Positions 29,330 through 58,504 of a stretch of 64,000 nt of DNA are shown here, one piece after another. Numbering within the stretch: the first letter of the stretch is position 1; each line of letters opens with the position of its first letter. Below the pieces are notes generated by a model. The model was not told the DNA's origin and ran no database searches. It saw only the letters and a program-made list of their open reading frames with translations. The stretch comes from Gammaproteobacteria bacterium (lineage in GTDB: Bacteria > Pseudomonadota > Gammaproteobacteria > SZUA-140): positions 5,695 to 69,694 of the forward strand of contig JAKISP010000010.1 in NCBI GenBank assembly GCA_021648525.1, read 5' to 3'. The translations under genes were made by a program, and so were the position numbers.

Positions 29330-29355
29330 CCGATACGCTGTTTATTGTCTAGTTG

Positions 29356-29386
29356 AGCGGGCACCTTTGGGTGCCCGTTTTTTTTG
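29356..29386. terminator. rho-independent terminator
   Basis: The hairpin is cgggcacc tttg ggtgcccg and is followed by a T8 run. Confidence 0.6.
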
Positions 29387-29519: not shown

Positions 29520-30359
29520 ATGACAAGACGTGGTGGGAGAGCTCGTTTAATCGGGCATTTGCTGGGGGGCGTTTTGGTGGGCATGTTATTGCCTGCTATG
29601 AGTGCTGTTGCCGGCGTCTACAACACCAAACACAATCTTGGCAGTAGCGGCCTGAATGCGGCCAGTAATTTTAGTGGTACAGAAGAGATCTGTGTCTTTT
29701 GCCATACCCCGCATGGTGGTGATGCGTCGGCGGCGGTACCCATCTGGAATCGTCAGCTGGATGCGGGCGGTTTTCAAACCTATGATCAGATGGGGACCAC
29801 CACGCTAGATGCGAATGTTGAGCCGATAGGCTCTGTCTCCATTGCCTGCCTCTCCTGTCATGATGGCTCACAGGCGATGGATGCAGTCATTAATGAGCCA
29901 GGTTCGCTGGCTGATAACCCCTCTTTTTCTGCGGGTGACTGGAGCGGCCAGGCGGCGGCAGTTCAGGGGCGAATTGGGCCGGTTGATGTGGTGACAAATT
30001 TAGGTAAGGATCTAACGAACGACCACCCTGTCGGGATTCAATATGCAGGTGGCGGCTATTCAGAGAGCTACCCGGAGGGGCGACCAAGAGTCGATATTGA
30101 CTTTAATCCGCCAACCTCAGAAGTGCTGAGTACGGGGCGGGTGTGGTGGGTAGATAGCCGTGAGCATCCCGAGTCTTCTTTTAGTAAACGAGATTTAAAG
30201 CTTTATTCTCGCGTAGGGACACGCGGTACCAATGTTGGTGAGCTGCAGCCTTATGTGGAATGTGCATCGTGTCATGATCCGCATGTGGACTACAATCCGA
30301 CCTTTTTAAGGATTGACCCCGCTGGAAGCGCGGTTTGCCTGACTTGTCACGCGAAGTAA
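29520..30359 (+). CDS. tetraheme c-type cytochrome with doubled-CXXCH domains (paired_CXXCH family)
   Basis: It has a GGGGGAG RBS and a signal peptide. It has 4 CXXCH motifs (CVFCHTPH, CLSCHDG, CASCHDPH, CLTCHAK). The CHDPH...FLR...CxxCH spacing matches the doubled-CXXCH motif. Confidence 0.8.
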   Translation: MTRRGGRARLIGHLLGGVLVGMLLPAMSAVAGVYNTKHNLGSSGLNAASNFSGTEEICVFCHTPHGGDASAAVPIWNRQLDAGGFQTYDQMGTTTLDANVEPIGSVSIACLSCHDGSQAMDAVINEPGSLADNPSFSAGDWSGQAAAVQGRIGPVDVVTNLGKDLTNDHPVGIQYAGGGYSESYPEGRPRVDIDFNPPTSEVLSTGRVWWVDSREHPESSFSKRDLKLYSRVGTRGTNVGELQPYVECASCHDPHVDYNPTFLRIDPAGSAVCLTCHAK

Positions 30360-31361
30360 GTGATGGTGATGAAGTTGACTGCGCTGTGGATGCTACTGGG
30401 TTTAATGGCTGTGCCAGCCCTGGCCGAGCAAGTGGTGCTTGAACAGCGCCAGTCGGCGCTTGCTGCGGATGTATTTGCGGTGGTGGACGGAAAGGTCATT
30501 ACACAGCAGACATTTGATACCTTTTTGCACGTGGGAAAACGACAGCGGTTTTACCATGGTGATATCCCTGAAGCGGAAGAGGCTGCATTTCGAAAGGAGG
30601 TGGCGCAGCGCTTGATTGATCAGGTGTTGATGCGCTCCGCGGTGAAAGAAAGAGGGGTAGTAGCAGAGCCAGAGCAGGTGAAGGTTCAGTTGGCGGCCAT
30701 TGAGGCGCGCTATGAGTCGCGGCCGCATTGGCGGGCACAGCGAGAAGGATTCCTTGCAGAGTTATTGCCGCAGGTGGAAGAACAGAGTCAGTTCGAGCAG
30801 CTTGAGACGCAGGTGCGGAACGTGGTTGAGGTGAGTGAAACGGCGGTGGTGGCCTATTATCAGGCCAATTCCGAACAATTTACGACGCCGGAGCGACTGC
30901 GTGTTTCGCTGATTTTGTTAGGTGTCGAACCCTGGGCGCAGGCAGCCCAGTGGCAGGCGGCAATGGATGAGGGTGAGCGCTTAATTAAGCGACTGCGACA
31001 GGGCGGAGATTTTGCAGAGATGGCTCGCTTGCATTCAAGTGATGGCTCAGGGCTTAAAGGCGGTGATTTAGGTTACGTTCACAAAGGAATGTTGGCGGAA
31101 GAGGCGCAGCAGGTGCTGGATAAAATGATGCCGGGGGAGGTGTCGTCTGCCATTCGTTTGCTGAAAGGTGTCGCGATATTCAGGGTTGATGAGCGGGTTT
31201 CACCGGTGTTGAATCTGTTTGAACGGGTTGCACCACGCGCACGCGATTTGTATGTGCGTGAGCAGAGCGAAAAGAACTGGCGTGAGTTTATGAGTGAGAT
31301 GCGCAGTAGTGCGGATGTACAGGTAAGAGATCCGTTGCTGTTACCAATTAGCGATGAGTAG
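30360..31361 (+). CDS. periplasmic PpiC-type peptidyl-prolyl cis-trans isomerase (parvulin; SurA/PpiD-like chaperone)
   Basis: It has a signal peptide and a parvulin domain (SLILLGVEPW...GGDFAEMARLHSSDGSGLKGGDLGYVHKGMLAEEAQ). Confidence 0.7.
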   Translation: MMVMKLTALWMLLGLMAVPALAEQVVLEQRQSALAADVFAVVDGKVITQQTFDTFLHVGKRQRFYHGDIPEAEEAAFRKEVAQRLIDQVLMRSAVKERGVVAEPEQVKVQLAAIEARYESRPHWRAQREGFLAELLPQVEEQSQFEQLETQVRNVVEVSETAVVAYYQANSEQFTTPERLRVSLILLGVEPWAQAAQWQAAMDEGERLIKRLRQGGDFAEMARLHSSDGSGLKGGDLGYVHKGMLAEEAQQVLDKMMPGEVSSAIRLLKGVAIFRVDERVSPVLNLFERVAPRARDLYVREQSEKNWREFMSEMRSSADVQVRDPLLLPISDE

Positions 31362-31422
31362 TAGGGGGTTGTTCTGATTATCATGCGGTCGTTGCAAGTC
31401 GTATTTGTGACGTTAGATCAAT

Positions 31423-33231
31423 GTGGGCTGGATGGCTAGGGAGATAGCATCCCGGCGTTTATACCTGTTAGCCTCGGTTGCGATGTTGTGCCCGCTCGCC
31501 GCGCCATTAGCCGCGCCTGTTGATCTGTCGGGTGATGTTGGGTATGCCTACCGTTTGATGAAAGGTGATAATAGTGAAACCGTGAGTAACCAGCTACGAG
31601 GTTCGATACGCGGCAGGTCTTACTTGGGGCAGCCGTGGATTGCGACTGTGGATGTCGGTTTGCGATTTACCGAGGATAGAGCCAATTACAGCCTCACTTC
31701 GAGTGCGCATGTTGATGGTAGTGATACTAAATTGGTGACCGGTGACCTGAGCCTGAATGTGATTCCGCAGAGCCGTTTTCCTATTTCAATCTCCTATCAG
31801 GCCAATGATAGCCGCGTTGATGCTACGCTGAATACCATCACCAGCCCACTCACGGCGGCGGGTAATCGTGAATTCAAGACCCGGCGTTTTTCGATTAGGC
31901 AGAATATTACGGCAGACAGCGCCAGCCGTTTTAAGTGGAACCTGGATTCCAATCAGTGGGATTCCAGTAATAGTGAAAAATACAGTGACTGGTTATTAGG
32001 TGGCAGTGCTGATTTTGGTTTTGATGACCACCGGTTACAGTTGCGAGGGAGTTATAAGTCTATTGACCGGGCCGCTTTAAGTCAGGAGACAACGAATACT
32101 ACGCTGAGTGGTGATCATTTTTATCATAGCCCGACGCGGGCGCTCAGAGTGGACTCTTCTGTGGATTACTACCAGTATCAAACAGAAGGGGTAGCGTCCG
32201 ATATTGTCTTTAGTAACGGTGAGCTTGATACGACCAGTTATCAGGCGTCGAGCTTTGTATTCTGGCGCCCCGTTGACCGTAAGCTGAGCGCGAGTGCAGG
32301 TGTGCGGGTGTTTAATCTGACCAGTGATGCTATTTCAACTAACACCGCAGAGACGACAATTAGTAATGAAACTGAGCTGCTGAGTCTGAATGCGAGTGCG
32401 GCTGGGTTGTATCAATATACAAAAAATGTCCGCTTTGATGGGAATGTGAACTTTTCCGTTAATGATAACGGTGTAGAAGAGAATAATGCGTACCTTGGGC
32501 GATTGGGCGCACTGTTACAGTCCGATATTCATGAAATTCCTTTGGGGATGATGTATCAGTGGCGTGCATCGGCTGCGGCACAGACACAGGGGATAGAAAG
32601 GAATAAGCAGTACCAGACATTGAGTGTTAATCTGGGGCACGATGCGAACCGTAGCTGGCTGAATGATGATAAAAGTTCTGCATTACGGTTTGGTTGGAGT
32701 CAGGCGGTTAATGCTTCGCTTGAAAGTGGTGATGAGGACGCGAACTCACAGCGGTTTGATCATTCGGTCAATGTCGGCTGGGATCGTTATGGTGATCGTG
32801 ACAGTACTTATTCTCAGCTTACTATCTCGGATGCGCGCACCCTGGGTGATCGTGAAAGTGATCAGCAGTTGGTGAATCTACAGCTCACTCGAACGCAAAA
32901 TATGACCCGACGTAGCACGTTAACGGGCAATATTACCGCGCAAAGTGTGCGCCAGAATTTTGCTGGTCAGGATGCGAGTGAGATATCAACAACCACGACT
33001 GGAGCGATAAATTATCAGCTTTCCAGCGTGTTTGGTATTCCTCGTTTTCGTTATGGGTTTGATGTTCGCGTGTCACGAGCATCTCAGGATTCGGGAGTTG
33101 ATCGTGCCGAATGGGAACACCGACTGGATTATAGTGTCGGTCTAGTAGATACTAGGGCCAGTTGGCGCCTGATTGATGCTGGGGAGCAGAATTACACTTT
33201 GGTGTATTTTCAGGTTACACGACGTTTTTGA
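31423..33231 (+). CDS. large outer-membrane beta-barrel protein (602 aa, no heme motifs), a candidate porin component of a porin-cytochrome complex
   Basis: It has a signal peptide (…AMLCPLAAPLAAP). It is rich in alternating polar/aromatic beta-strand segments. It has a C-terminal aromatic end (...YFQVTRRF). It has no CXXCH. Confidence 0.55.
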   Translation: MGWMAREIASRRLYLLASVAMLCPLAAPLAAPVDLSGDVGYAYRLMKGDNSETVSNQLRGSIRGRSYLGQPWIATVDVGLRFTEDRANYSLTSSAHVDGSDTKLVTGDLSLNVIPQSRFPISISYQANDSRVDATLNTITSPLTAAGNREFKTRRFSIRQNITADSASRFKWNLDSNQWDSSNSEKYSDWLLGGSADFGFDDHRLQLRGSYKSIDRAALSQETTNTTLSGDHFYHSPTRALRVDSSVDYYQYQTEGVASDIVFSNGELDTTSYQASSFVFWRPVDRKLSASAGVRVFNLTSDAISTNTAETTISNETELLSLNASAAGLYQYTKNVRFDGNVNFSVNDNGVEENNAYLGRLGALLQSDIHEIPLGMMYQWRASAAAQTQGIERNKQYQTLSVNLGHDANRSWLNDDKSSALRFGWSQAVNASLESGDEDANSQRFDHSVNVGWDRYGDRDSTYSQLTISDARTLGDRESDQQLVNLQLTRTQNMTRRSTLTGNITAQSVRQNFAGQDASEISTTTTGAINYQLSSVFGIPRFRYGFDVRVSRASQDSGVDRAEWEHRLDYSVGLVDTRASWRLIDAGEQNYTLVYFQVTRRF

Positions 33232-33284
33232 CAGGCGTTGTAGGCCTCATATAATAAGAGTAAATTACGAGGAGAGAGTTTGAT

Positions 33285-33722
33285 ATGTCATCTAAGATCA
33301 AGCGTAATGTGTTGAAATCGATGATCATAGGGGTATTAGCGTATATGGGGGCTCTGGGGGCCCCGCAGCCTGCGCAAGCAGAGTATGCTGATATCGTGAT
33401 CAATAACTATGCTGATGCAGCAGGAATGCGCCCTGCCGTTTTTCCGCATTGGTTCCACCGAATTCGTTTCCGTTGCAAGGTTTGTCATACAGACCTGGGT
33501 TTTGCGTTTAAAGCGGGTGGTAATAAAATCGATATGGCTAAAATTATCGATGGCAAGTTCTGCGGAGCCTGTCATAACGGTGAAATTTCATGGTCGGTAG
33601 AAAACTGTGCCATGTGCCATTCCGGGATACCGGGGCAACCAACCCATTTTCACGGCAGTACGGTGCAGCGTCTGATCGCCCCGGCGTATAAGCCACTTCA
33701 AGCCAACGACGCTAAGAAATAA
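33285..33722 (+). CDS. periplasmic triheme cytochrome c7/c3-type (PpcA-like)
   Basis: It is 145 aa with a signal peptide. Heme 1 is FPHWFHRIRFRCKVCH, as in c7 cytochromes, plus CGACHNG and CAMCHSG. Confidence 0.75.
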   Translation: MSSKIKRNVLKSMIIGVLAYMGALGAPQPAQAEYADIVINNYADAAGMRPAVFPHWFHRIRFRCKVCHTDLGFAFKAGGNKIDMAKIIDGKFCGACHNGEISWSVENCAMCHSGIPGQPTHFHGSTVQRLIAPAYKPLQANDAKK

Positions 33723-33736
33723 GAGGAAGGCAAGCA

Positions 33737-34408
33737 ATGAATCATAAAACTAAAGCTGTTTCCTTATCTCTGGCGATGCTGGTGTCTGCCTTTGCGTGGA
33801 ATGCGCAGAGCCATGCAGATGAAGCGACCGGGGTGAAACAATCACCATTGATGTTGGCTGAGGTTTCGTCTGCCAACACCTTTAACGTTAACTTGAAGAA
33901 GCCTAAATCACGCAATCTTCCGCCTGCGGAAGACGGCATTCATGATCCAGAAAATGAAGCAACTCACTCGTTGCAGCATCCACTTGATGCCTATAAAGGG
34001 CTGCCAACAAGTGAATTTGGTAACTATGTTGACTGGGTGAAGGCGCTTGATGAGGGTAAATTGCGTCCGCGTTGGGATCGTTCCGATCCAAACGAAGAGC
34101 CATTTGTGCTCGATCTTGATATTGTACGTCCAGTGAAGGCGTCTGTGCCTGATGTGGTTTTTCCACATCGTCAGCACACCGAGTGGCTTTACTGCTCAAA
34201 TTGCCATCCTGCAATCTTTATTCCTCAGAAGAATGCGAATCAGATCAGTATGTCCGCAATTCTTCTGGGTCAAAAATGTGGCGTCTGCCACGGAAAGGTT
34301 TCTTTTCCAATTGAGACCAAAACCTGTCGTAAGTGTCATTCTAAGCCTAAACCGGCTGGTTGGACGCCTCCTTTGAGTGAAGCAACACTGAAGAATCCCT
34401 GGAAATAA
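33737..34408 (+). CDS. periplasmic c7-type triheme cytochrome with an ~120-aa N-terminal extension (paralog A)
   Basis: It has a signal peptide. It has a DGIHDP motif in the extension. The c7 module is VVFPHRQHTEWLYCSNCHP...IPQK...CGVCHGKVSFP...CRKCH. Confidence 0.75.
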   Translation: MNHKTKAVSLSLAMLVSAFAWNAQSHADEATGVKQSPLMLAEVSSANTFNVNLKKPKSRNLPPAEDGIHDPENEATHSLQHPLDAYKGLPTSEFGNYVDWVKALDEGKLRPRWDRSDPNEEPFVLDLDIVRPVKASVPDVVFPHRQHTEWLYCSNCHPAIFIPQKNANQISMSAILLGQKCGVCHGKVSFPIETKTCRKCHSKPKPAGWTPPLSEATLKNPWK

Positions 34409-34542
34409 CCGACACATTAATCAGAGCTATAGCATATTCTAAGGATTGATAATTAACGCCGGACGAACTCTTCGCCCGGCGTTCCCTATAATGTGTTTCA
34501 GGCAAGATTAATTGTTCAGTTAATTTTAAGGAAGTTGAAACC

Positions 34543-35874
34543 ATGAAAACACCATTTCAAATGCGTTCTCCAGTGCGAGCAGGGATAACCTCTATTCTGC
34601 TTGGCCTGGCAATGCCCAGTTATGCCTTCGATGATGATTGGGGCGATGGCGGAACGCTTGAAATTGAGCGTATTTTTGTGGTCACTGCTCAGGATAAACC
34701 AGATACCCATCCGTTTTATGGTGTCGGCCATAAACGTGGCATGGAGGTGGATGGTGTACCCGGAAAGGAATTAGTGCTGACGCGTGGCAAGAGTTATGCC
34801 TTTCGAGTGGATACAGATATAAAGCATGATTTCTATCTGTCAACCGAGTCGGTAGGCTGGGGAGCCTCAGTGCTGGCAGAGGGGGTTGAAGGTAATTTTA
34901 CCTATGACGGTATTGTTACCATCGAAACGGATAACAAAACACCCAAAGAATTTTTTTATGCTTGTCGTAACCATAAATACATGGGCGGCAAGATTCATAT
35001 TGCGAATGCAGGTGAAGAAGATAAGGTAGAGCTTGGCAAGATCGATATCTCGAAATTGCCACCAACAAAGCCACCTAAACCTGTTTCAGAACGTACGGTT
35101 AAGCAAAAAATTAGCTTTGCAGACATGTTTGTTAGCCTGTCATCAGCGGCGAAACGCGTCGCTAATAGTGATAATGATAAGGCAAAAATCGCTTACACCG
35201 ATGCACATGATCGCCTCAATAAAGCGAAAATAGCGCTGGATGCGGATGATCTTGTGCTGGCGCTGTTCGAAGTGGATGAATCACTGCGCTCGATGAGTAC
35301 TGCGGCACGTCTGGTGCCAACGCCCGAGCAGCTAGAAGAGCAGAAACGTATATTTGTAGCCTTACTGGAAGAGGTGAGGTCATTTGAGAAGTCATATAAA
35401 CGGAATGTTGAGCGTCTGGAGAAGAGTGGCCGAACCGATGTGCGTGATGACCTGAGTTATGCTGAATTAGAGAGTACGATAGAAGCTGCGGAAAGCCTTT
35501 ATGAAATGAAGGAAATTGTTGCTGCGAATCGTTTGATGAAAAATTTACAGAAAGCGATTACATCAGCATTGGGTAAGATGCTTGACAACACCACAGTGGT
35601 ATATGATAAAAACTTTGAGACGCCACTGGAGGAGTTTGAATACGAGCTTGCGCGCTACCTTAGCTATGAAGAGTTGATCCCGCTAGCGATCGAGCAGAAA
35701 CGTCCTTCTAAACGAGCGATAGAGTTGATGGATCAGTTTGTTGTTAAAGGTAAGGACATTTATCTACAATCGAAACCGGTGATTGAAGGAAAGGATTATA
35801 AAAACGCGATTTTGATGTTGCAAGGCGCAACATTTCAGTTGAAACGTGCATTACGGATGGTAGGAGTGAGATAG
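34543..35874 (+). CDS. cupredoxin (amicyanin-like type-1 copper) domain fused to a long alpha-helical C-terminal domain, novel fusion
   Basis: It has a signal peptide. Its copper-ligand pattern YACRNHKYMGGKIHI (C-x2-H-x2-M-G-K) closely mirrors amicyanin HCTPHPFMRGKVVV, with a candidate upstream His (KHDFYL). A Pro/Lys linker is followed by about 280 aa of helical heptad-like sequence. Confidence 0.6.
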   Translation: MKTPFQMRSPVRAGITSILLGLAMPSYAFDDDWGDGGTLEIERIFVVTAQDKPDTHPFYGVGHKRGMEVDGVPGKELVLTRGKSYAFRVDTDIKHDFYLSTESVGWGASVLAEGVEGNFTYDGIVTIETDNKTPKEFFYACRNHKYMGGKIHIANAGEEDKVELGKIDISKLPPTKPPKPVSERTVKQKISFADMFVSLSSAAKRVANSDNDKAKIAYTDAHDRLNKAKIALDADDLVLALFEVDESLRSMSTAARLVPTPEQLEEQKRIFVALLEEVRSFEKSYKRNVERLEKSGRTDVRDDLSYAELESTIEAAESLYEMKEIVAANRLMKNLQKAITSALGKMLDNTTVVYDKNFETPLEEFEYELARYLSYEELIPLAIEQKRPSKRAIELMDQFVVKGKDIYLQSKPVIEGKDYKNAILMLQGATFQLKRALRMVGVR

Positions 35875-35875
35875 C

Positions 35876-36526
35876 ATGACGCAAGCTATGAGCGAACGAT
35901 CACAAAAAATGCTGCCAATGAATGGTTGGTGGTGTGTGCTCGTGCTGATGGCCTGTTTTTGTTTTAGTACGTCGAGCCATGCGGCTGAGTCAGCGTTTAC
36001 GGATGCTGCTAACCCTTCGGAACCAGGCATCACGGCCGTCTGGTCTCGCGGCCTGCATTTTCAGACTGAAGGTGAAGTGGTGCCACTGGCTGAAGATGGT
36101 ATTCACGATCCTACTAATGATGCGGTCAAATTGTTACAGGAACCCTATGAAGCGATGGCTGAATTTCCACGGGATTCTCAGGGCATCATTGACTGGGTGC
36201 AGACACTACGCCAGGGATTGATTGATCCGCGGATGAGCCTGACTGGTGAAGAAGAGATGTTTCCGGTCGATTTTGATATTATTTTTAAAAATACGGGTTC
36301 AATGCCTCATGTCCGCTTTCCGCATTTAGAACATACTGAGTGGCTGACCTGTGCTAACTGTCATCCATTGATCTTTATTCCTCAAAAAGGCGGAAATCCT
36401 GTCTCCATGTCGGCAATTATTCAGGGTGAATATTGCGGTGTGTGTCATGGTAAGGTCGCCTTTCCACCAACGATGAATTGCGGCCGATGTCACTCCGTTC
36501 CAAATCAAGCCAACTTGCGGCGCTAA
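35876..36526 (+). CDS. periplasmic c7-type triheme cytochrome with an N-terminal extension (paralog B of 33737..34408)
   Basis: It has the same architecture as paralog A. It has LAEDGIHDPTND and the c7 module VRFPHLEHTEWLTCANCHP...IPQK...CGVCHGKVAFP...CGRCH. Confidence 0.75.
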   Translation: MTQAMSERSQKMLPMNGWWCVLVLMACFCFSTSSHAAESAFTDAANPSEPGITAVWSRGLHFQTEGEVVPLAEDGIHDPTNDAVKLLQEPYEAMAEFPRDSQGIIDWVQTLRQGLIDPRMSLTGEEEMFPVDFDIIFKNTGSMPHVRFPHLEHTEWLTCANCHPLIFIPQKGGNPVSMSAIIQGEYCGVCHGKVAFPPTMNCGRCHSVPNQANLRR

Positions 36527-37746
36527 TCGCACTGACATCCTCCCTTCTAATTGGGGGGTGTTCAATGCTGTCAAAAGACCCGGCTTCGAGCGCCACTCAT
36601 GCATCAGTGCAACAGTCACTCTATGGCTGGCGAGAGATTGAAGGTGGGGTCGAGTCAGCATGGACAGATAATTCGGCTTTATCAGCTATTACTGGTCAGC
36701 GATACGTTCGTTTTGTTCGGCCGGTGCAGGTGGCGGCGCGCGGAAACTTTGTCTTTGTTGTTGATGCTGGCCCAGAATTGCTTTATCGCTATGATCTTAG
36801 CCGTAATGAGTTGAAGGTTGTATTGAATCTCAAGGGGGTTATGGCTGGTGAAGTCACGGATCTTTATGTCTACCCGGATCACTCATTTCTCCTGGTAGAC
36901 CCTGATTCCGCACGTGTGCTGCACTTTAGTCGCAATGGGCGTCTAATTCGTATTTTCCAGGATGGTTTAAATCTGATTCGCCCTGTTGCTGTCACCTATG
37001 ACGAGGAGATGGGGCGCGTATTGATTGCCGATGGCTCCAGTGATGACGTGCTGGTGTTTTCTACAACAGGGCAATTACAGGGCGTGATTGGCACACGTGG
37101 TGTTCAGGAAGGGCAGTTTTTAAATATTACGGCGATGACTTCTGGCGCTGACGGTATTTATGTCACGGCACGCCTTGGTCATCGATTACAGGTAATGGGG
37201 CGTGATGGTTCACATGTGAAATCATTTCAGTCTGATGCAGTGGTGTTTCCGTTGGCTGTTGCAGTCGATAGAAGCGGCAATACATTTGTGAGTGACTATC
37301 TTGATAACTCGATTAAGGTTTTTCAGGATGGCCTGTTTCTTGAGAGTATTGCTGGATCTGGTTTTTCACCTGGTCGTTTTAAGCGGATTAGCGACTTGTG
37401 GTACGACGAAGGTTTTCTCTATGCTGTCGATAGCCTTAACGGGCGGATTCAGGTATTAAGAGTTGAGGTGATTGAACCTGAAATAGAAACGTTTGTTGAA
37501 GATGAAATTGACCTGGAAACAGCACCTCCTGCAGCTGCTGAGGTGTTACCGTTAGGGGAGCCAGGTGAAGAGCTGGAACTGGAAACTGCGCAGAATGAAC
37601 TGGAGGAATTGCAGGAGGAACTTGAAGCTGCTCGCTTAGAATTAGACGCTGAAGCTGACAGGCAGCCGGCCGAAGCCCCGCTTACTTCCGAGCCTCTTCC
37701 TGTTGAACCTGGTCAAGTGATTGATTCACCTGGTAGCGAAATTTAG
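36478..37746 (+). CDS. NHL-repeat beta-propeller lipoprotein with an acidic C-terminal tail
   Basis: It has a lipobox (LLIGGC). Multiple NHL-like blades are present (VFVVDAG...LYRYD, VLIADGSSDDVLVF, IYVTARLGHRLQV, TFVSDYLDNSIKVF, LYAVDSLNGRIQVL). The C-terminus is an E/L-rich acidic tail. Confidence 0.65.
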   Translation: MRPMSLRSKSSQLAALIALTSSLLIGGCSMLSKDPASSATHASVQQSLYGWREIEGGVESAWTDNSALSAITGQRYVRFVRPVQVAARGNFVFVVDAGPELLYRYDLSRNELKVVLNLKGVMAGEVTDLYVYPDHSFLLVDPDSARVLHFSRNGRLIRIFQDGLNLIRPVAVTYDEEMGRVLIADGSSDDVLVFSTTGQLQGVIGTRGVQEGQFLNITAMTSGADGIYVTARLGHRLQVMGRDGSHVKSFQSDAVVFPLAVAVDRSGNTFVSDYLDNSIKVFQDGLFLESIAGSGFSPGRFKRISDLWYDEGFLYAVDSLNGRIQVLRVEVIEPEIETFVEDEIDLETAPPAAAEVLPLGEPGEELELETAQNELEELQEELEAARLELDAEADRQPAEAPLTSEPLPVEPGQVIDSPGSEI

Positions 37747-37760
37747 AAATAAACATAATC

Positions 37761-38837
37761 ATGATGCTTAACTCTCGCCAAGGGCTGGTTGTGCTGTTAT
37801 GCCTGATTTTTTCAGGCTGCGCCTCCGCACCTGCTGTTCTGAAATATGACCTTGAAGAGGCGGCTGGGACAGTCTGGCCAGCCACCCCGGAGGTGGCACG
37901 TTATCAATACGTGGGGCAGCTAACCGGTGAAGAAAATTTCATCCATTCGAGTGATGATGTCTCAATGGGGCGTAAGGTTTTTGAATGGATTGTGGGTGTT
38001 GTGACCGGAGAAGAAGCCCCAACGGTTTTACAGCGTCCGCAATCTGGTACGGTAGATCGCGATGGACGTATTTATGTCACGGATGTGAGTCGTGCGGCAG
38101 TATATGTGTTTGATGGGCAAGGCGGTCGACTGGATGTGTGGGAGATGGCGGGTGAGGCGTTGCGATTTAAAACACCGATCGGCATAGCGGTGGTTGAAAA
38201 AGCGGAAGGTGTACGTGAAATTCTGGTCGTTGATGCGGATCTTAAACGTGTGGTGGTACTAGATCAGAAAGGTATCCCGCAGCGCCACTTTGGTAGTGAT
38301 GTATTGACGCGGCCAACTGGACTGGCGCGGGATCCAGAGAGCGGCCAGCTCTATGTGGCGGATACTCACGGGCATGACATCAAGGTGTTTAGCGCAGATG
38401 GTGTATTGCTTAAAACGCTTGGAGTCAGTGCGAGGGGAGAAGGTCCGGGGCAATTTAACTCACCTACTCATCTTACTTTTGCGGCTGGCCAACTGTATGT
38501 GACCGATACACTTAATTCACGAGTGAAGATTTTTAGCGCGGATGGAGAGCTTGTGCGTATTTTTGGACGGCGCGGGATTTTTGTGGGTGACCTGCCGCGC
38601 CCCAAAGGGCTGGCGGTTGATAAAGACGGCAATATCTATGTGGTGGAATCCTATTATGATCATCTGTTAGTATTCAATGGTGAAGGGAACCTGCTTTTGC
38701 CGATTGGCGGCTCGGGTAGCGGCGTAGGGCAGTTTTACCTGCCCGCAGGTGTCTGGACTGACCACCGTGACAGGATATATGTGGCTGATAGTTTCAATGG
38801 TCGGGTCGTGATATTACAATATTTGGGGGGGGCATGA
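37761..38837 (+). CDS. NHL-repeat six-bladed beta-propeller lipoprotein
   Basis: It has a lipobox (IFSGCAS). It has six NHL blades (RIYVTDVSRAAVYVFD, LYVADTHGHDIKVF, LYVTDTLNSRVKIF, IYVVESYYDHLLVF, IYVADSFNGRVVIL...). Confidence 0.7.
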   Translation: MMLNSRQGLVVLLCLIFSGCASAPAVLKYDLEEAAGTVWPATPEVARYQYVGQLTGEENFIHSSDDVSMGRKVFEWIVGVVTGEEAPTVLQRPQSGTVDRDGRIYVTDVSRAAVYVFDGQGGRLDVWEMAGEALRFKTPIGIAVVEKAEGVREILVVDADLKRVVVLDQKGIPQRHFGSDVLTRPTGLARDPESGQLYVADTHGHDIKVFSADGVLLKTLGVSARGEGPGQFNSPTHLTFAAGQLYVTDTLNSRVKIFSADGELVRIFGRRGIFVGDLPRPKGLAVDKDGNIYVVESYYDHLLVFNGEGNLLLPIGGSGSGVGQFYLPAGVWTDHRDRIYVADSFNGRVVILQYLGGA

Positions 38838-41509
38838 GAGGTCATTTTACAGGCACGTTATTGATCCTGTTTGCTGTTGTATCAATGGCAGAGTCAGCTT
38901 ATGCTGCACGCATCTCAGATATCGCGAACACAAAACATAACTTTTCGGCGACAGTTCCACCGAGTGAGACGTCTCGTACGGTTCAGGCAGTCTCTGAATC
39001 TCAAATTTGTGCGTTTTGCCATACACCGCATGGGGCGACTAACGAAGCGCGTACGCCACTTTGGAATCGCACGCTTTCGACCGCAACTTATGCACCCTAC
39101 AACTCAAGCTCGTTGGATGCAATAGATCTGGGGCAGCCAGAGGGAAAGTCTAAACTCTGTTTGTCATGCCATGACGGTACGCTGGCGATCGGATCTGTTA
39201 ATGTATTAAATCGGGTAGAACTCAAAAAAGAGGGACGTGACATTCCTTTTCAGGGGACACGCCCTGATGGCAGTATTCCAGATGGACATGGTGAGTCAAC
39301 TGGATTTACGCGCCGCATTGGTGTCGACTTAACCAATGATCACCCGATTTCATTTACTTTTGATAGTGCTCAGGCCGCGCGTGATGGTGAGCTCTATAAC
39401 CCAGAAGTTGAATTGCATATTAGAGAACGTTCGCCAGGAAGCGGCCCGCCTTTCCCGCAGTCACAACATACAGGTGTAGCGGGTTATTTACCGTTGGAAG
39501 ATGGCCAGGTGGAGTGTATCACCTGTCATGACCCGCATATTCGTTCAGATGATCCGAACGAAGGTAACATTAAATTCTTACGTGTTAACCGAATGCAACG
39601 CCACGCGGAGCCTGTTGACGGTCAGTTTAATGCGGACAACGATATTATCTGTATTTCTTGCCATGATAAAGAAGGATGGGTTGGGTCTGCGCATGCTAAT
39701 CGTCTCGCGGCAGATGAAACTTATCAACTGCCTGCTGGTAATCTACGCGAATTCCCGCGAGATACTCAGGTGTGGCAAGCGGCATGTTTGAATTGTCATG
39801 ACCCGCACACGGTTGAAGGTTCACGCCGGATTTTACGTGAGGGAACCGATGGGCCGACCAGGATTGATCCCGTGACCGGCGGTAAGTTTAAACAGGGCGG
39901 TAATCACGCAATTGAAGAAGTCTGTTTTGCCTGCCACTCACCCGATGGTGATGTGTTAGTTGGGCAGGGTAGTGTTGGTTTCCAGGTGCCGGATGTTAAG
40001 ACTGATTTTGTGACACCAGGCAACACCCATATGCCACTGCAGAGTGCAGATCAACGCGCTGGTCGTGAAGTGCATTCGATTGGTAGCGGCAGAGATGGTG
40101 TGGAAGGAAAAACGCGAGGCCAGGATTTTGTTGAATCCCCAGAGATGATGGGTAAGGGGAATTTGATGAATCGTCACGTAGAATGTACCGACTGCCATAA
40201 TCCTCATCGTGTCGCTAAAAATCGCATGTTCAATGCAAACAACGCGATTCCAGATGTAGAGGGTACGCATCCACATACACCCACTGATATTGCGGCTAAT
40301 GGTTTAACCATGCACACCAACCTTGCTTCAGGGGTGTTAAGGGGGATTACTGGCGTTGAGCCTGTGTATGGATCCACTGCTTTTGGTAGCGAGCCTGTGA
40401 GTTTTACCCTTAAACGTGGAGACCCCGGAACGGGTGGGAGTACTGAGGTTGGCGCCCCTTATGTCACGCGTGAATATCAAGTCTGTCTTAAGTGTCATTC
40501 AAACTATACTTACGATACACCGCCCCCTTTAGGTTTGCACGGTGGGAGTACCGCGCCGGGTACGAATGCGATGTTTGAATACACCAATCAGGCGATGGAG
40601 TATCAAGCGCCTCCTTCCCATATGGGCGAGGTGAGTTCATTTCCAGCACCGGGATGGGGGCCATTTGTTGGTGTCGATGGCGAGGGAAACAGCGTTGATT
40701 TTGAAAATAACAATCATCGCTCATGGCACCCTGTGATGGATAGAACTGGACGTACTGCGACAGAACGGCTTGCCGACCCTGATGTCTGGCGTTCACCGTT
40801 TAATATCCCTGGCGCATTAGGGGAGCAAACGATGTACTGCACCGACTGCCACGGCAATAACACCGCGAGTGATACCGTTATTCCAAATGGTGGCGTTAAT
40901 GGTGAAGTCTGGGGGCCTCATGGCTCGCAAAATAATTTTCTATTAAAAGGACCCTGGGATGATAATACCGGGCGGCAGCAGCCTGAGGGGCTGTGTTTCA
41001 GGTGTCACGAATTTGATCAATATGGCCGAGACTCAGGAATCGCGACCTCCTTAACCCCGCCCGTGCTTGCTAGTGGATTTAAAGTAATCAATAACGTGGC
41101 TTTTGGTTGTATTAATTTTAAGCTGGTTAATCTGCACATTGGACATAATAAATCCATTGCCCCGGGCGTGACTAATTTCCGTTGCACGCTTTGTCATATT
41201 GCGGTGCCTCATGGTTGGAAAAATAAAGTATTCCTCGCGAATCTAAATGATGTTGGGCTAGAGGCGAGCCTCGCGCCTGGCACGCAGGTGAGATATTTAG
41301 GGTTTGCGGGTAATACGAATAAAGCGAATGGAACCGGACGCTACTACGCTGGCCCGTACTACAATGGTGCCGCATTAAAAGTCAATACCTTTTCACGCAG
41401 TGGCGCCTGGCTTGAGACAGGTTGTGGCTCATCTGGAAACCCTGGTAATGGTGAACTTGGGTTTGGCTGGATGACGAGTCTTGACGAAACATGCGCATCA
41501 TTACCATAA
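38834..41509 (+). CDS. large multiheme c-type cytochrome (891 aa, 11 CXXCH), doubled-CXXCH family, candidate outer-membrane or extracellular cytochrome
   Basis: Its start overlaps the NHL gene stop (ATGA). It has a signal peptide. There are 11 CXXCH motifs (CAFCHTPH, CLSCHDG, CITCHDPH, CISCHDK, CLNCHDPH, CFACHSPD, CTDCHNPH, CLKCHSN, CTDCHGNN, CFRCHEF, CTLCHIA). The N-terminal module TKHNFS...ICAFCHTPHG...PLWNR parallels the tetraheme protein at 29520. Confidence 0.8.
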   Translation: MRGHFTGTLLILFAVVSMAESAYAARISDIANTKHNFSATVPPSETSRTVQAVSESQICAFCHTPHGATNEARTPLWNRTLSTATYAPYNSSSLDAIDLGQPEGKSKLCLSCHDGTLAIGSVNVLNRVELKKEGRDIPFQGTRPDGSIPDGHGESTGFTRRIGVDLTNDHPISFTFDSAQAARDGELYNPEVELHIRERSPGSGPPFPQSQHTGVAGYLPLEDGQVECITCHDPHIRSDDPNEGNIKFLRVNRMQRHAEPVDGQFNADNDIICISCHDKEGWVGSAHANRLAADETYQLPAGNLREFPRDTQVWQAACLNCHDPHTVEGSRRILREGTDGPTRIDPVTGGKFKQGGNHAIEEVCFACHSPDGDVLVGQGSVGFQVPDVKTDFVTPGNTHMPLQSADQRAGREVHSIGSGRDGVEGKTRGQDFVESPEMMGKGNLMNRHVECTDCHNPHRVAKNRMFNANNAIPDVEGTHPHTPTDIAANGLTMHTNLASGVLRGITGVEPVYGSTAFGSEPVSFTLKRGDPGTGGSTEVGAPYVTREYQVCLKCHSNYTYDTPPPLGLHGGSTAPGTNAMFEYTNQAMEYQAPPSHMGEVSSFPAPGWGPFVGVDGEGNSVDFENNNHRSWHPVMDRTGRTATERLADPDVWRSPFNIPGALGEQTMYCTDCHGNNTASDTVIPNGGVNGEVWGPHGSQNNFLLKGPWDDNTGRQQPEGLCFRCHEFDQYGRDSGIATSLTPPVLASGFKVINNVAFGCINFKLVNLHIGHNKSIAPGVTNFRCTLCHIAVPHGWKNKVFLANLNDVGLEASLAPGTQVRYLGFAGNTNKANGTGRYYAGPYYNGAALKVNTFSRSGAWLETGCGSSGNPGNGELGFGWMTSLDETCASLP

Positions 41510-42543
41510 GCGGAGTGCTGCGCCGTCTGGCATCAACAAAGCTAACATTATTATGGATGTTACTGTTAGCCGTTGGTGCAGCGCTGAGTTACGATAATCC
41601 TGAGGATACTTCGATCTGGGTCTTGATCGTACCGATGTCACTGCTGGCGCTTAACCTGATCGCTGCAATTATCAGTAACCCCCGCATCAATCGACGTGGC
41701 GGTCTGCTAGTATTCCATCTGGGCTTGTTAAGTATTGTTGTGCTGGCTGCGATTGGTCGCCTGACCCATATGGATGGACGTGTTGAAATTATCTCTGGCG
41801 CTGAGTTCTCACCTGAAATAGTCACCGATATACATAGCGGTCCGCTGCATAGCGGTGCACTGGCTGATGTGAATTTTGTACAGGGGCCATTTACAGTTGA
41901 GTATCGTCCTCAGATGATGCGAGGCCTTACCTATAGTCAGGTTGCCCTGCCTGATAATAAAGGTGGGTGGCGAGAAGCAGTGGTGGGTGATGACCGCCCG
42001 CTCCTGGTTGAGGGATACCGTTTCTATACCACTTTCAATAAAGGGTTCGCGCCAATATTAAGCTGGACGAGTCATGATGGACGGGTGGCTGAAACTGGCG
42101 CTGTTCATATGCCCTCATACCCCTTGTTTGATTTTAAACAGTCAAATAGCTGGACACCTCAGGGAGGCGATGAAATTAAATTCTGGTTGCAGTTAGAAAC
42201 CGGCCTTACCACTGAAGAGGCGTGGGTGCTCGATGGACGACGTGCGACAGGTACGCTGGTAGTTAATGTATCGGGTGAACGTACGGAATTATTACCGGGA
42301 GAGAGTGTCAAAATGGCGGGTGGTACATTACGTTACGAGCAGCTTACGACCTGGATGGGCTACAAATTATTTTATGACCCCACATTACAGTGGATGTTTC
42401 TCGCCGCATTTATCACGATTGCTGGGCTTGCCGCCCATTTTTGGCAAAAACTGGCGGCAGAACCACTGGGACTGGATGATGCGCTACGACATGAAAAACA
42501 GCATGCAAAAGGATCGGTGCCTGCATCGCGTTCGGCAGCGTAG
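41491..42543 (+). CDS. System II cytochrome c biogenesis protein ResB/Ccs1 (CcsB) family
   Basis: It has an N-terminal TM pair, a large periplasmic domain and a C-terminal TM (WMGYKLFYDPTLQWMFLAAFITIAGL). It lies immediately upstream of a CcsA/ResC gene. It is shorter (350 aa) than canonical ResB. Confidence 0.6.
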   Translation: MRIITISGVLRRLASTKLTLLWMLLLAVGAALSYDNPEDTSIWVLIVPMSLLALNLIAAIISNPRINRRGGLLVFHLGLLSIVVLAAIGRLTHMDGRVEIISGAEFSPEIVTDIHSGPLHSGALADVNFVQGPFTVEYRPQMMRGLTYSQVALPDNKGGWREAVVGDDRPLLVEGYRFYTTFNKGFAPILSWTSHDGRVAETGAVHMPSYPLFDFKQSNSWTPQGGDEIKFWLQLETGLTTEEAWVLDGRRATGTLVVNVSGERTELLPGESVKMAGGTLRYEQLTTWMGYKLFYDPTLQWMFLAAFITIAGLAAHFWQKLAAEPLGLDDALRHEKQHAKGSVPASRSAA

Positions 42544-42564
42544 CGGTGTAAGGAGATTGGAACG

Positions 42565-43425
42565 ATGACAGAATTACCATGGTTATACGCAGGCATCGCA
42601 GCCTATGCATTTGCAGCTATCGCAGCGCTGGTGGGTGTGGCACGATTAGGCACAACGATGGCGACTGTTGGCGGGGTCAGTAGCGTCAGTGAAAGCCAGC
42701 GCAATAATGAAAGACTGGTGCTTTTATTGATGACCACGAGTGTGATTTTACTGACGATCACGCTAGCTGATCGCTGGCTGCGCATTGGCCATGGCCCGTT
42801 TGTAAACCTGTTTGAGTTATTAATCAGCCAGCTCTTTAGCCTTGGTCTGGTTTATACCATCGCTTACTGGCGCATCCCTGTATTGCGTACCACATCCGTG
42901 GTGGTGTTGCCGCTGATGGGTGTGTTAGCTGTGTGGGTCATGGTGCTTGAACCGTCAGATAGTGTATTCCCGCCCACTTATCACAACCCATGGCTATGGG
43001 CACATGTTGGCTTTGGTAAATTTTTCCTCGCCTTTTGTTTAATCGGCACCGGGTTAGCTGGCGTGATCTTACTACGTAGTTATGGCTTTTTTAAAAACCT
43101 GTTTCGTCATCTGCCTGATAATGTCATCCTCGATAAACTGGCGTGGCGATTTATGTTGCTTGCGCTGGTGTTTGATAGCCTGATGTTATGTGCCGGTGCG
43201 GTTTGGGCACAGGATGCATGGGGACGCTACTGGGCATGGGATGCGCTGGAAACATCATCATTCCTTAACTGGCTGCTATTAGGTGCCTCAATACATGCGC
43301 GCACAACCTATAATGTTCCTATCCGGTTAGGTGCAGTTCTGATTATCAGTGTTCTTGTTTTTGCATTTGTCACCTACTTTGGCACCCCTTTCTATAGCGA
43401 AGCGGCACACAAAGGGGTGATATAG
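42565..43425 (+). CDS. cytochrome c-type biogenesis protein CcsA/ResC (heme-handling WWD-domain protein)
   Basis: It is 286 aa with multiple TM helices. It has the Trp-rich WWD motif WGRYWAWDALETSSFLNWLLL and conserved His residues. Confidence 0.8.
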   Translation: MTELPWLYAGIAAYAFAAIAALVGVARLGTTMATVGGVSSVSESQRNNERLVLLLMTTSVILLTITLADRWLRIGHGPFVNLFELLISQLFSLGLVYTIAYWRIPVLRTTSVVVLPLMGVLAVWVMVLEPSDSVFPPTYHNPWLWAHVGFGKFFLAFCLIGTGLAGVILLRSYGFFKNLFRHLPDNVILDKLAWRFMLLALVFDSLMLCAGAVWAQDAWGRYWAWDALETSSFLNWLLLGASIHARTTYNVPIRLGAVLIISVLVFAFVTYFGTPFYSEAAHKGVI

Positions 43426-43433
43426 CGGAGTAG

Positions 43434-44219
43434 ATGGTGGACGTGGATAAGAAAAAAAATAGTAATGAAACGATAGTTACAACCCTTTCACTGTTAATGG
43501 TTGGAATTGTCAGTGCTGCGATTGTGATGTTGATGATGCAGGACGACCCAGGCAAGACGGGGGCATCAATCACACTGGAAGCACTACAGGGATCATCGGT
43601 CGCTCAACTACCCCCGCCCCCCGTAAATAACGCAATGTCTTCGGTCGAAATAGCAATACCCGCACTACAAACGCCAGTGCCGCAAGTGGCCGCACCTCAA
43701 ACAGAAGAAGCGAAACGCATGGCTGAAATAACCACGCGTTTTGAACAGGCGGTGGTGATGCTACATGCCAGACAATATGAACATGCCGCAACCGCACTGC
43801 ATCGAGTGATGACATTGGCGCCCAGAATGCCTGAAGTCTATGTGAATATGGGGTATGCAAAGTTAGGCCAGGCATTACCCAATGAAGCGCTGGTCTTTTT
43901 TGAAACTGCGACACAGCTAAAACCAGAGCAGGCGAATGCCTACTGGGGAATGGCTGTTGCGCTGGAAAATAGTGGTGACCTTGCGGGTGCTTTAGGTGCG
44001 ATGCGTACTTTCCTGCACCTCTCATCCGGTGATGACAACTTCGCACGACGCGCACGCTCAGCACTGTGGGAGTGGGAAGAGGCACTCGCTCGCGGGCCGT
44101 TGCCGGAAGAAGAAAAAGAATTTCTTGAACGTGGGGCGTTGCAGTGGGAATCTCGCAATACGCCGCGTGATGATGCCGATAGTGGAGAGCAAACACTACA
44201 GGTGCAACCGCTTCAATAA
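43434..44219 (+). CDS. membrane-anchored TPR-repeat protein (CcmI/NrfG-like apocytochrome chaperone candidate)
   Basis: It has an N-terminal TM helix, then a Pro-rich linker. It has TPR-like repeats (YEHAATALHRVMTLAP, EVYVNMGYAKLGQ, ANAYWGMAVALENSGDLAGA). Confidence 0.55.
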   Translation: MVDVDKKKNSNETIVTTLSLLMVGIVSAAIVMLMMQDDPGKTGASITLEALQGSSVAQLPPPPVNNAMSSVEIAIPALQTPVPQVAAPQTEEAKRMAEITTRFEQAVVMLHARQYEHAATALHRVMTLAPRMPEVYVNMGYAKLGQALPNEALVFFETATQLKPEQANAYWGMAVALENSGDLAGALGAMRTFLHLSSGDDNFARRARSALWEWEEALARGPLPEEEKEFLERGALQWESRNTPRDDADSGEQTLQVQPLQ

Positions 44220-58498: not shown

Positions 58499-58504
58499 CT
58501 TATT

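Follow-up and report, generated by a model that had tools for sequence, protein, structure and literature searches.

What is a 443-aa protein with a cupredoxin-like copper site and a long helical tail doing between two multiheme cytochromes, and does this combination represent something new? The question was raised for a 64,000-nt stretch of gammaproteobacterial DNA (the window) by an original prediction that regarded the protein as a fusion not known from described proteins and its surroundings as a copper/heme relay built from new parts. The fusion is real and well conserved, and it is already known, so that there is no novelty in it as a fusion: the protein was published in 2022 as "Cupredoxin UetF", encoded between the trihemes UetE and UetG (bioRxiv 10.1101/2022.05.06.490989), and the UetF of "Candidatus Tenderia electrophaga" is ALP54627.1 or Tel_16525 (Eddie et al. 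2017 mSystems; 2022 bioRxiv/mSphere; PMC5371394). Nor are the parts new, as the window contains the complete uetABCDEFGHIJ-ccsBA cluster, with the 443-aa protein as UetF ortholog and UetE and UetG as its neighbors.

A complete uet cluster around the cupredoxin gene

The region comprises the following features:

29520..30359, + strand: uetA, tetraheme c-type cytochrome, 279 aa, four CXXCH; first in the conserved order, corresponding to the published "Tetraheme cytochrome UetA"
30360..31361, + strand: uetB, SurA-like peptidyl-prolyl isomerase, 333 aa; Pfam Rotamase and SurA_N, conserved position
31423..33231, + strand: uetC, putative outer-membrane beta-barrel, 602 aa; position conserved in related loci, barrel assignment from bioRxiv 10.1101/2022.05.06.490989
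33228..33255, + strand: promoter-like site TTGACA-16-TATAAT; sigma-70 consensus match only, 12/12 hexamer positions
33285..33722, + strand: uetD, c7-type triheme cytochrome, 145 aa, three CXXCH, without N-terminal extension; Cytochrome_C7 54 bits, TIGR04257 63 bits
33737..34408, + strand: uetE, extended c7-type triheme cytochrome, 223 aa; Pfam, NCBIfam, paralogy to uetG
34455..34483, + strand: inverted repeat AACGCCGG-N13-CCGGCGTT in the uetE-uetF spacer, read from the sequence, without a T-run after it
34543..35874, + strand: uetF, predicted exported cupredoxin-helical protein, 443 aa, stop codon included
34543..34626, + strand: putative UetF signal peptide, residues 1-28 (…AMPSYA|FDDD), without lipobox; assigned from the sequence
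34657..35040, + strand: UetF cupredoxin domain, residues 39-166, eight beta-strands
34825..34983, + strand: putative type-1 copper ligand codons, His95 (34825-34827), Cys141 (34963-34965), His144 (34972-34974), Met147 (34981-34983)
35041..35088, + strand: UetF interdomain linker, residues 167-182, containing PPTKPPKP; lowest pLDDT in the mature protein, variable among homologs
35089..35871, + strand: UetF C-terminal helical domain, residues 183-443, ten helices in about three 3-helix bundles
35876..36526, + strand: uetG, extended c7-type triheme cytochrome, 216 aa, paralog of uetE; starts 1 nt past the uetF stop codon
36478..37746, + strand: uetH, NHL/beta-propeller-like, 422 aa as called; conserved position, lipobox-like LIGGC
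37761..38837, + strand: uetI, NHL-repeat beta-propeller protein, 358 aa; NHL 90 bits, conserved position
38834..41509, + strand: uetJ, undecaheme c-type cytochrome, 891 aa, 11 CXXCH
41491..44219, + strand: ResB/CcsB-like (41491-42543), CcsA-like (42565-43425) and NrfG-like TPR (43434-44219) genes; Pfam ResB, Cytochrom_C_asm, TPR

The three reading frames on which the original prediction was built (uetE, uetF and uetG) are thus confirmed. From uetA onwards, the 13 genes code for a tetraheme cytochrome, a PPIase, the 602-aa outer-membrane protein, two trihemes, the 443-aa protein, a further triheme, two NHL proteins, the 11-heme cytochrome and the ResB-like, CcsA-like and TPR proteins, and since this order agrees gene for gene with the published legend uetA-J, ccsAB, nrfG, including an identical downstream set of ResB/CcsB-like, CcsA-like and TPR genes (bioRxiv 10.1101/2022.05.06.490989), the cluster can be identified as uet. 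The CXXCH counts (4 in UetA, 3 each in UetD, UetE and UetG, 11 in UetJ) are those expected of such a cluster. About 55 of 68 related metagenome-genome loci, among them the Ca. Tenderia sp. MAGs L045 and L050, repeat this order, and the position of uetF between uetE and uetG is kept in all 41 complete cupredoxin-bearing loci. The name uet, for "undecaheme electron transfer", was first given in cathode-oxidizing "Ca. Tenderia electrophaga", and the system was described there and in related uncultured Gammaproteobacteria (bioRxiv 10.1101/2022.05.06.490989). The cluster is known from bacteria that oxidize electrodes and iron. Tel_16525 had already been described in 2017 as cotranscribed with three trihemes, and these genes were among the most highly expressed on biocathodes, with peptides detected (PMC5371394). 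In the literature of 2026, Uet is still termed "predicted", and in the literature searched we found no experiment on UetF or any other Uet protein up to that year.

Some details of the cluster deserve mention. The uetC product has no family match in Pfam or NCBIfam. The promoter-like site lies 30 nt upstream of uetD; CTGACA-16-TATAAT (11/12) is retained there in three related loci (L001, L002, L004), and the exact 12/12 sequence is absent from all related loci examined. The real start of uetH is probably a few codons downstream of the called one.

The two cytochromes next to UetF are, as originally predicted, triheme paralogs. UetE and UetG, with three CXXCH each, score 44.1 and 44.0 bits with Pfam Cytochrome_C7 (PF14522; cut-off 24.8) and 62.1 and 63.3 bits with NCBIfam TIGR04257 nanowire_3heme (cut-off 40), and are 42% identical over 196 aa (E 2e-52). 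In UetE, the signal peptide is followed by the extension and by a c7 domain at residues ~136-202. The conserved N-terminal extension of ~75 aa, "EDGIHDP…DWV…PR" (with AEDGIHDP in both), is common to both and has no relative in Pfam or PDB. UetE and UetG appear to be anciently duplicated c7-type triheme cytochromes. The symmetric bracket that had been read into this arrangement is not retained, as it ignores the third triheme gene uetD, which directly adjoins uetE upstream; the real order is cytochrome-cytochrome-cupredoxin-cytochrome.

The predicted copper site and its wider family

UetF is composed of a signal peptide, a cupredoxin domain, a Pro/Lys linker and three 3-helix bundles. The full AF2 model (pLDDT 86) has a beta-sandwich at residues 41-154 and helices at residues 183-439, in line with the originally proposed PPTKPPKP linker and helical C-terminal part; residues 1-38 are below pLDDT 50, and linker residues 171-180, which differ in length and sequence among homologs, reach 65. 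A model of the cupredoxin domain (pLDDT 95.1, pTM 0.89) shows the predicted Greek-key beta-sandwich. DSSP gives a strand at 136-141, a loop at 142-148 and a strand at 149-154, so that in the model Cys141 closes the first of these strands, with His144 and Met147 in the loop ahead of the second; these are the canonical places for the ligands. As sequence models and a PDB profile search gave no match, we base this fold assignment on the predicted structure and on alignments of profile pairs. Pfam Copper-bind and Cupredoxin_1 did not match UetF even at E up to 10, NCBIfam did not match the window UetF, and the PDB profile search with the N-domain returned nothing significant, with noise such as TEV-site tags and antibodies, and pseudoazurin as best cupredoxin (E 0.99).

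The amicyanin-like Cys-x2-His-x2-Met site is found in YACRNHKYMGGK, i.e. Cys141-x2-His144-x2-Met147, and is completed by His95. In an 80-sequence alignment with identities down to about 40%, these four residues are invariant in all sequences and belong to only 42 invariant columns; C..H..M is retained in all 120 homologs among the matches listed. With hhalign, His95/Cys141/His144/Met147 fall on His53/Cys92/His95/Met98 of amicyanin and His85/Cys138/His143/Met148 of rusticyanin, at modest probabilities of 42% and 2.6%. The reference sequences were verified against PDB, and the ligand numbering of both proteins is that of the established structures. The N-domain of UetF thus carries a complete predicted type-1 ligand set and would be expected to bind copper.

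This domain also appears to belong to a much larger family. PF25489, the "At5g54830-like domain", is matched by 59 of 80 UetF homologs (E <= 0.01; best E 1.8e-8), though not by the window UetF itself, which stays below every Pfam threshold (gathering score for PF25489, 27 bits). A profile of UetF N-domains found 4750 representative proteins at E ≤ 0.001 and picked up PF25489 proteins with E values as low as 1e-105; 6 of 9 non-UetF representatives scanned match PF25489, and C..H..M is kept in 134 of the 143 top representatives. On the basis of these profiles, the UetF copper domain probably belongs to the PF25489 family, a link that we did not find in the uet literature.

The helical domain and the possible roles of UetF

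The most striking invariant motif of UetF, TP.EEYEYELARY.SYEELIPLAIEQK.P, is located in the helical domain. In four betaproteobacterial uet clusters (L059, L061, L063, L068), UetF lacks the cupredoxin domain, and each of these clusters has an extra UetD-like triheme after uetG, which all 41 complete loci with a cupredoxin lack. Such cupredoxin-less forms are 30-33% identical and retain EEYEYELARY.SYEELIPLAIEQK.P. If Uet works in Betaproteobacteria, it does so without the cupredoxin domain, and the helical domain therefore appears to be the conserved core of UetF. This loss of the cupredoxin domain together with a fourth triheme cytochrome was not found in the uet literature. The same holds for the observation that about two thirds of the UetF orthologs look like lipoproteins on ~100-aa tethers, as 79 of 120 among the matches listed have a lipobox-like signal and such a tether. 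UetF homologs also occur away from uet genes (L026, L046, L057, L060), in two cases (L026, L060) among unrelated housekeeping-type genes.

As to the nature of the helical tail, Tel_16525 was annotated as a tetratricopeptide repeat protein in 2017 (PMC5371394). We found neither a match to a TPR HMM nor a helix-hairpin superhelix, and the tail is not a TPR domain, a point that we did not find in the uet literature. The tail was also compared with YfdX (PF10938) and with repeats of a generic three-helix-bundle or spectrin-like type, EzrA being an example. A YfdX identity was rejected: the best UetF homolog reaches 25.3 bits and thus stays below the gathering score of 26.6 bits. The window UetF has no match to this family, 23 of 80 homologs match at E < 0.01, and YfdX PDB chains score E about 1.

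How could such a protein function in the Uet system? The cluster is predicted to encode an outer-membrane porin-cytochrome system that takes electrons from solid or extracellular donors. The present analysis shows the gene identities, the fold, the conservation of the ligands and the synteny; copper binding, redox role, partners and direction of electron flow are proposed. Electrons would enter via UetJ and UetA at the UetC barrel, and the trihemes UetD, UetE and UetG in the periplasm would receive them next. UetF would be Sec-exported to the periplasm, its copper centre could serve as one-electron carrier between the trihemes and inner-membrane acceptors, and its helical domain may dock or organize the partners. 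We consider it likely that this joint reading is correct, i.e. that uetE-uetF-uetG, in the middle of the complete uet cluster, encodes a one-electron copper carrier with a docking or organizing helical domain between its trihemes. The originally suggested copper/heme relay, put forward in the literature likewise as an inference, is plausible.

What alternatives exist for a redox function of UetF? The protein could mainly serve the Uet cytochromes of the periplasm as a structural scaffold or in their assembly, with the helical rod as functional part and the cupredoxin domain as a lineage-specific accessory that is dispensable for electron flow. The betaproteobacterial clusters in which the helical domain alone occupies the place of UetF are in favor of such a role, as are the conservation of the helical motif in these forms, the lipobox-like signals and tethers, which suit an anchored organizer, and the 2017 proposal of a protein-protein interaction role in aligning cytochromes (PMC5371394). 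However, all 80 aligned homologs with a cupredoxin domain keep the four copper ligands unchanged, which speaks for selection on metal binding, and the domain loss coincides with the gain of another redox protein, a pattern more in keeping with a redox than with a passive module. Structural and redox roles are not mutually exclusive, and we regard a mainly structural UetF as rather unlikely. Somewhat more doubtful still is a far-reaching combination, in which UetF, beyond a soluble copper shuttle, would be a periplasmic organizer of a new type: its rod, built from three 3-helix bundles and held by a lipid tether in most lineages, would line up UetD, UetE and UetG, perhaps via the acidic EDGIHDP extensions, the type-1 copper would contribute one redox step to a fixed heme/copper wire across the periplasm, and the copper module and a fourth triheme would be interchangeable in evolution. 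When the UetF domains were compared with the trihemes for electrostatic complementarity, no clear pattern emerged.

The N-domain could also handle copper as a chaperone or by sequestration, like CupA, CopC or the cupredoxin-like domains of EfeO type, and thereby supply or buffer copper. A CusS-type copper sensor kinase is indeed encoded in the window, albeit ~21 kb away, but His/Cys/His/Met, of which Cys-x2-His-x2-Met is placed in the loop that joins the last two strands, is a type-1 electron-transfer signature, unlike the Met-rich or Cys/Met pattern of chaperones, and the gene lies inside a heme electron-transfer operon, which makes copper handling very improbable. That a frameshift or misassembly has joined two genes, or that the fusion is unique to this genome, can practically be dismissed, as there are at least 393 homologs, of which those among the matches listed cover at least 84% of the protein and many are on contigs >100 kb, the two-domain architecture recurs in about 55 independent MAG loci, and one continuous high-confidence model spans both domains.

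Uet is of interest as one of few candidate routes by which neutrophilic bacteria may take up electrons from electrodes and minerals; many uncultured Gammaproteobacteria of hydrothermal, sediment and groundwater habitats have it, as do some Gallionella. Within the cluster, no protein without heme other than UetF is a redox candidate. Should the copper centre of UetF be confirmed, its potential would mark the branch point between the oxidase and reverse electron flow, as with rusticyanin in Acidithiobacillus. The value of the present analysis is mainly in the correct labeling of the region as a described system instead of a new fusion; experimental handles are the cupredoxin-less UetF with its fourth triheme, the tethered lipoprotein forms, and the probable membership in the very large PF25489 family with its Cys-x2-His-x2-Met signature.

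Comparison with known systems

Among known cupredoxins, amicyanin (PDB 1AAC) shares the Cys-x2-His-x2-Met spacing of the ligand loop and all four aligned ligands with UetF (hhalign pairwise E 2.6e-4, 24% identity). However, it consists of one domain of 105 aa and has methylamine dehydrogenase and cytochrome c551i as partners, with no genomic or functional link to UetF. Rusticyanin of Acidithiobacillus ferrooxidans (PDB 1RCY, 1CUR) is only 15-18% identical, its loop is Cys-x4-His-x4-Met, Ser86 follows the first His where UetF has Asp96, and it is a single domain without helical tail. As regards auracyanins and other membrane-tethered cupredoxins, the window UetF has no lipobox, and auracyanins have no helical domain; a partnership of UetF with alternative complex III is speculation. 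Apart from UetF, PF25489 comprises for the most part large secreted proteins, in which the domain is present in tandem copies or fused to DOMON, CHRD, GSDH or T9SS sorting domains, whereas UetF is a cytochrome-operon protein.

For the trihemes, the closest comparison is GSU1996 of Geobacter sulfurreducens (PDB 3OV0), which is matched by the UetE c7 domain with E 2.9e-26; of the four stretches matched, the third (chain residues 173-246) gives the best fit. UetE shares the three CXXCH and the FPHxxH distal histidines with the c7 domains of GSU1996 and PpcA, and it has a conserved Met172 in place of the distal His47 of PpcA. GSU1996 is a four-domain polymer, whereas UetE and UetG combine a single c7 domain with the extension. 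The domains of GSU1996 offer an analogy for one His/Met heme, and as Met172 is invariant and a third distal His is absent, one such heme per UetE c7 domain is suggested.

The known system to which the window corresponds is the uet cluster of "Ca. Tenderia electrophaga", which has UetF between two extended trihemes, the 13-gene order, and a cupredoxin with a long C-terminal part. Homologs in three Ca. Tenderia sp. loci (L045, L048, L050), on which this homology was judged, have ~39% identity to the window UetF over residues 45-442 and the same neighborhood. The window protein is shorter, with 443 aa versus about 505 aa in Tenderia sp. (L045), and has a plain signal peptide, whereas the Tenderia form has a lipobox and a Pro/Ala-rich tether of ~100 aa. 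Past the TPR gene, the window continues with DsbA-like and SelO-like genes, and Tenderia with bat genes.

Identity and recurrence of the locus

The locus at 29520-44219 corresponds in every gene to the uetABCDEFGHIJ-ccsAB-nrfG cluster (undecaheme electron transfer), a name given by Eddie et al. (bioRxiv 10.1101/2022.05.06.490989). It starts with a tetraheme cytochrome, a SurA-like prolyl isomerase and a 602-aa protein without family match, continues with three triheme cytochromes, with UetF placed between the second and the third, and is completed by two NHL-type propeller proteins, an 891-aa cytochrome with 11 CXXCH motifs, ResB-like and CcsA-like cytochrome maturation proteins and a TPR protein. 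The features that concern us here are the following:

33285-33722, + strand: uetD, 145 aa, c7-type triheme cytochrome without extension, immediately upstream of uetE
33737-34408, + strand: uetE, ORF of 223 aa
33920-34140, + strand: UetE extension, residues ~62-135, conserved sequence
34543-35874, + strand: uetF, ORF of 443 aa
34657-35040, + strand: UetF copper domain, member of a PF25489-type family
35876-36526, + strand: uetG, ORF of 216 aa
36083-36295, + strand: UetG extension, residues ~70-140, conserved sequence

The three reading frames uetE, uetF and uetG lie where they had originally been placed, and both trihemes that bracket UetF are present, but the original prediction did not mention uetD, the third triheme gene further upstream. 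It had also not recognised the fusion from described proteins and had spoken of new parts, which is not borne out, as gene 6 of the cluster has been published as 'Cupredoxin UetF', between 'triheme cytochrome c(7) UetE' and 'UetG' (bioRxiv 10.1101/2022.05.06.490989). For cotranscription and expression we rely on the 2017 metatranscriptome paper (PMC5371394), in which the same gene, Tel_16525, was labelled as TPR protein, a label that we reject; it is reported to be cotranscribed with the three trihemes, its peptides were detected, and expression of the three trihemes on the cathode is among the highest of all genes. The arrangement is thus already published and named, and the present additions refine a known system. 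In the uet papers, we found no mention of a ligand-level check, a rejection of the TPR label, tethered forms, cupredoxin-less variants with a fourth triheme, or the link to PF25489, and the literature searched, which extends to 2026, yielded neither experimental work on UetF nor later discussion of it.

When each species was represented by one genome, relatives were detected at 68 loci, all in metagenome-assembled genomes. The majority belong to uncultured Gammaproteobacteria, among them Ca. Tenderia sp. and SZUA isolates, and some to Gallionellaceae, Nitrosomonadales or Burkholderiales. The gene order is shared by about 55 of these loci, and two trihemes upstream and one downstream of UetF are found in all 41 complete loci with the copper motif. 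An artefactual origin of the 443-aa fusion is rejected by this recurrence, and together with the published uet cluster it excludes both an artefact and an undescribed status. Gene identity and synteny are shown by these data.

Several regulatory-type elements accompany the cluster. A strong terminator-like hairpin (29355-29380, + strand; 11 pairs, 7 of them GC, with a T-run) lies 3' of the general porin gene at 28076-29329 and appears to mark the upstream cluster boundary, before uetA. A promoter-like sigma-70 site of perfect consensus, TTGACA-16-TATAAT (33228-33255, + strand), is located 30 nt ahead of the uetD start, and CTGACA-16-TATAAT is kept in three related loci (L001, L002, L004), where it lies within a 95% identical intergenic spacer. 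This putative site would provide the cluster with an internal promoter, in keeping with the cotranscription and very strong expression that have been published for uetDEFG. The 134-nt uetE-uetF spacer contains an 8-bp inverted repeat, AACGCCGG-N13-CCGGCGTT (34455-34483, + strand), with no T-run thereafter; this repeat may function in RNA processing or stability. Some 21 kb downstream of uetF, there is a putative copper-sensing system, with a gene for a CusS-type copper/silver sensor histidine kinase (57068-59191, - strand; CusS sensor domain, E 1e-43) that is adjoined by a 228-aa ORF.

The putative copper domain of UetF

UetF is predicted to begin with a Sec signal peptide without lipobox that is cleaved between AMPSYA and FDDD. 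The sequence contains the previously noted PPTKPPKP stretch and the motif Cys141-x2-His144-x2-Met147. In an AlphaFold2 model based on an 80-sequence alignment (mean pLDDT 86), the N-terminal domain forms a beta-sandwich (residues 41-154), followed by a linker of lower confidence (160-182) and ten helices (183-439). Rusticyanin is the top Foldseek match of the full model (E 7e-5), and CuA domains and laccases, nitrosocyanin and azurin were also named in the fold comparison. In profile-to-sequence alignments, His95, Cys141, His144 and Met147 fall on His53/Cys92/His95/Met98 of amicyanin, in agreement with the amicyanin-like copper site that had been suggested, and on His85/Cys138/His143/Met148 of rusticyanin; the two reference sequences were verified against the PDB, and their ligand numbering is taken to be that of the established structures. 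In the model, the penultimate strand ends with Cys141, and the loop from there to the last strand contains His144 and Met147, a predicted placement that corresponds to the canonical cupredoxin layout. The 80 aligned homologs, which reach down to ~40% identity, show no exception at any of the four putative ligands, and C..H..M is kept in all 120 listed homologs. Classical cupredoxin sequence models did not match UetF, and a profile search of PDB sequences came back empty, both of which count against the cupredoxin call. Fold and ligand conservation are shown by this analysis, and we infer copper binding.

Two further residues are invariant. His56 (34708-34710), a fifth invariant histidine, is part of K-x3-H-P-x-[FY]-G-x-G and conserved across the wider family, and Asp96 (34828-34830) directly follows His95, at a position that is occupied by Asn in most cupredoxins and by Ser in rusticyanin.

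The Pfam model PF25489 'At5g54830-like domain' matched 59 of 80 UetF homologs, and a profile of the N-terminal domain detected 4750 representative proteins or clusters at E ≤ 0.001 in a library of 1.84 billion proteins; the UetF copper domain therefore comes from a large, little-studied cupredoxin-like family. The matches comprise stand-alone proteins of ~150 aa as well as large secreted proteins in which as many as ten stretches match, and C..H..M is kept in 134 of the 143 top representatives, often once per repeat. Partner domains in nine scanned non-UetF representatives include DOMON, CHRD, PQQ-type GSDH, MopE copper motifs and T9SS sorting domains, and tandem copies occur in T9SS-secreted giants (among the wider-family proteins P0121-P0263). 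In the literature on the Arabidopsis gene At5g54830, no experimental characterisation of PF25489 as a copper site was found.

Triheme cytochromes and UetF variants

UetE and UetG each contain three CXXCH motifs and score above the curated thresholds for both Pfam Cytochrome_C7 and the NCBIfam model TIGR04257 'c(7)-type cytochrome triheme domain', which identifies them as c7-type triheme cytochromes; their alignment (42% identity over 196 residues, E 2e-52) confirms their paralogy. The common N-terminal DGIHDP extension that had been noted is indeed present in both, as 'AEDGIHDP…', and conserved in orthologs of other genomes. It amounts to ~75 aa preceding the c7 domain ('EDGIHDP…LQ.P…DWV..L..G.I.PR'), is acidic (pI 4.1-5.0) and is absent from UetD. 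No Pfam or PDB relative of it was found; its invariant His may serve in heme ligation or in docking.

For the Tenderia trihemes, domain C of the Geobacter dodecaheme GSU1996 is reported as the best match (bioRxiv 10.1101/2022.05.06.490989). The UetE c7 domain matches GSU1996 (3OV0; E 2.9e-26), best at the third of four matched stretches. This domain has only two conserved non-motif histidines (FPHxxH), and Met172 is invariant. Met172 presumably takes the place of the third distal His of PpcA, and one UetE heme is therefore probably His/Met-ligated, as known from GSU1996 domains.

UetF itself varies considerably. About two thirds of the orthologs (79 of 120) have a lipobox-like signal followed by a Pro/Ala-rich low-complexity tether of ~100 residues (e.g. 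residues 1-150 of P0034, one of the homologs P0018-P0120), whereas the UetF of the window and its closest relatives are soluble forms without lipobox and tether. Four uet clusters of Betaproteobacteria (L059, L061, L063, L068) have a shorter protein in place of UetF, which consists of a signal peptide and a helical domain with 30-33% identity to that of the window protein and lacks the cupredoxin domain. All four have an additional UetD-like triheme gene after uetG, which occurs in none of the 41 complete cupredoxin-bearing loci. It looks like the copper module has been swapped for a heme module in these clusters, and among the comparative data this is the strongest hint at a redox module in the cupredoxin of UetF. 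It also shows the helical domain to be the conserved core. Some homologs are encoded outside any uet cluster, in uninformative neighbourhoods. Gallionellaceae BIN13 has three such paralogs (L026 7875-10798; L046 7875-9197), two of them in tandem, and in the L046 paralog the Met ligand is replaced (CRNHKYAGG) and His56 is changed to Arg.

Proposed electron relay

In the best-supported reading, UetJ and UetA would take up electrons at the cell surface by way of the UetC barrel, and these would then reach the periplasmic trihemes. The type-1 copper centre of UetF would carry single electrons between the trihemes and acceptors in the inner membrane, and its helical rod may dock or organise partners; the identity of these partners and the direction of electron flow are what we infer. 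In the main rival reading, UetF would serve mostly as a scaffold, and the copper domain would be accessory. The retention of the helical domain where the cupredoxin is missing speaks for a scaffold role, and the apparent exchange for a heme module points to a redox role of the cupredoxin; the two roles are compatible.

In Acidithiobacillus, rusticyanin acts between Cyc2 and Cyc1/CycA1. The role that we propose for UetF as a copper carrier would be functionally analogous to that of rusticyanin.
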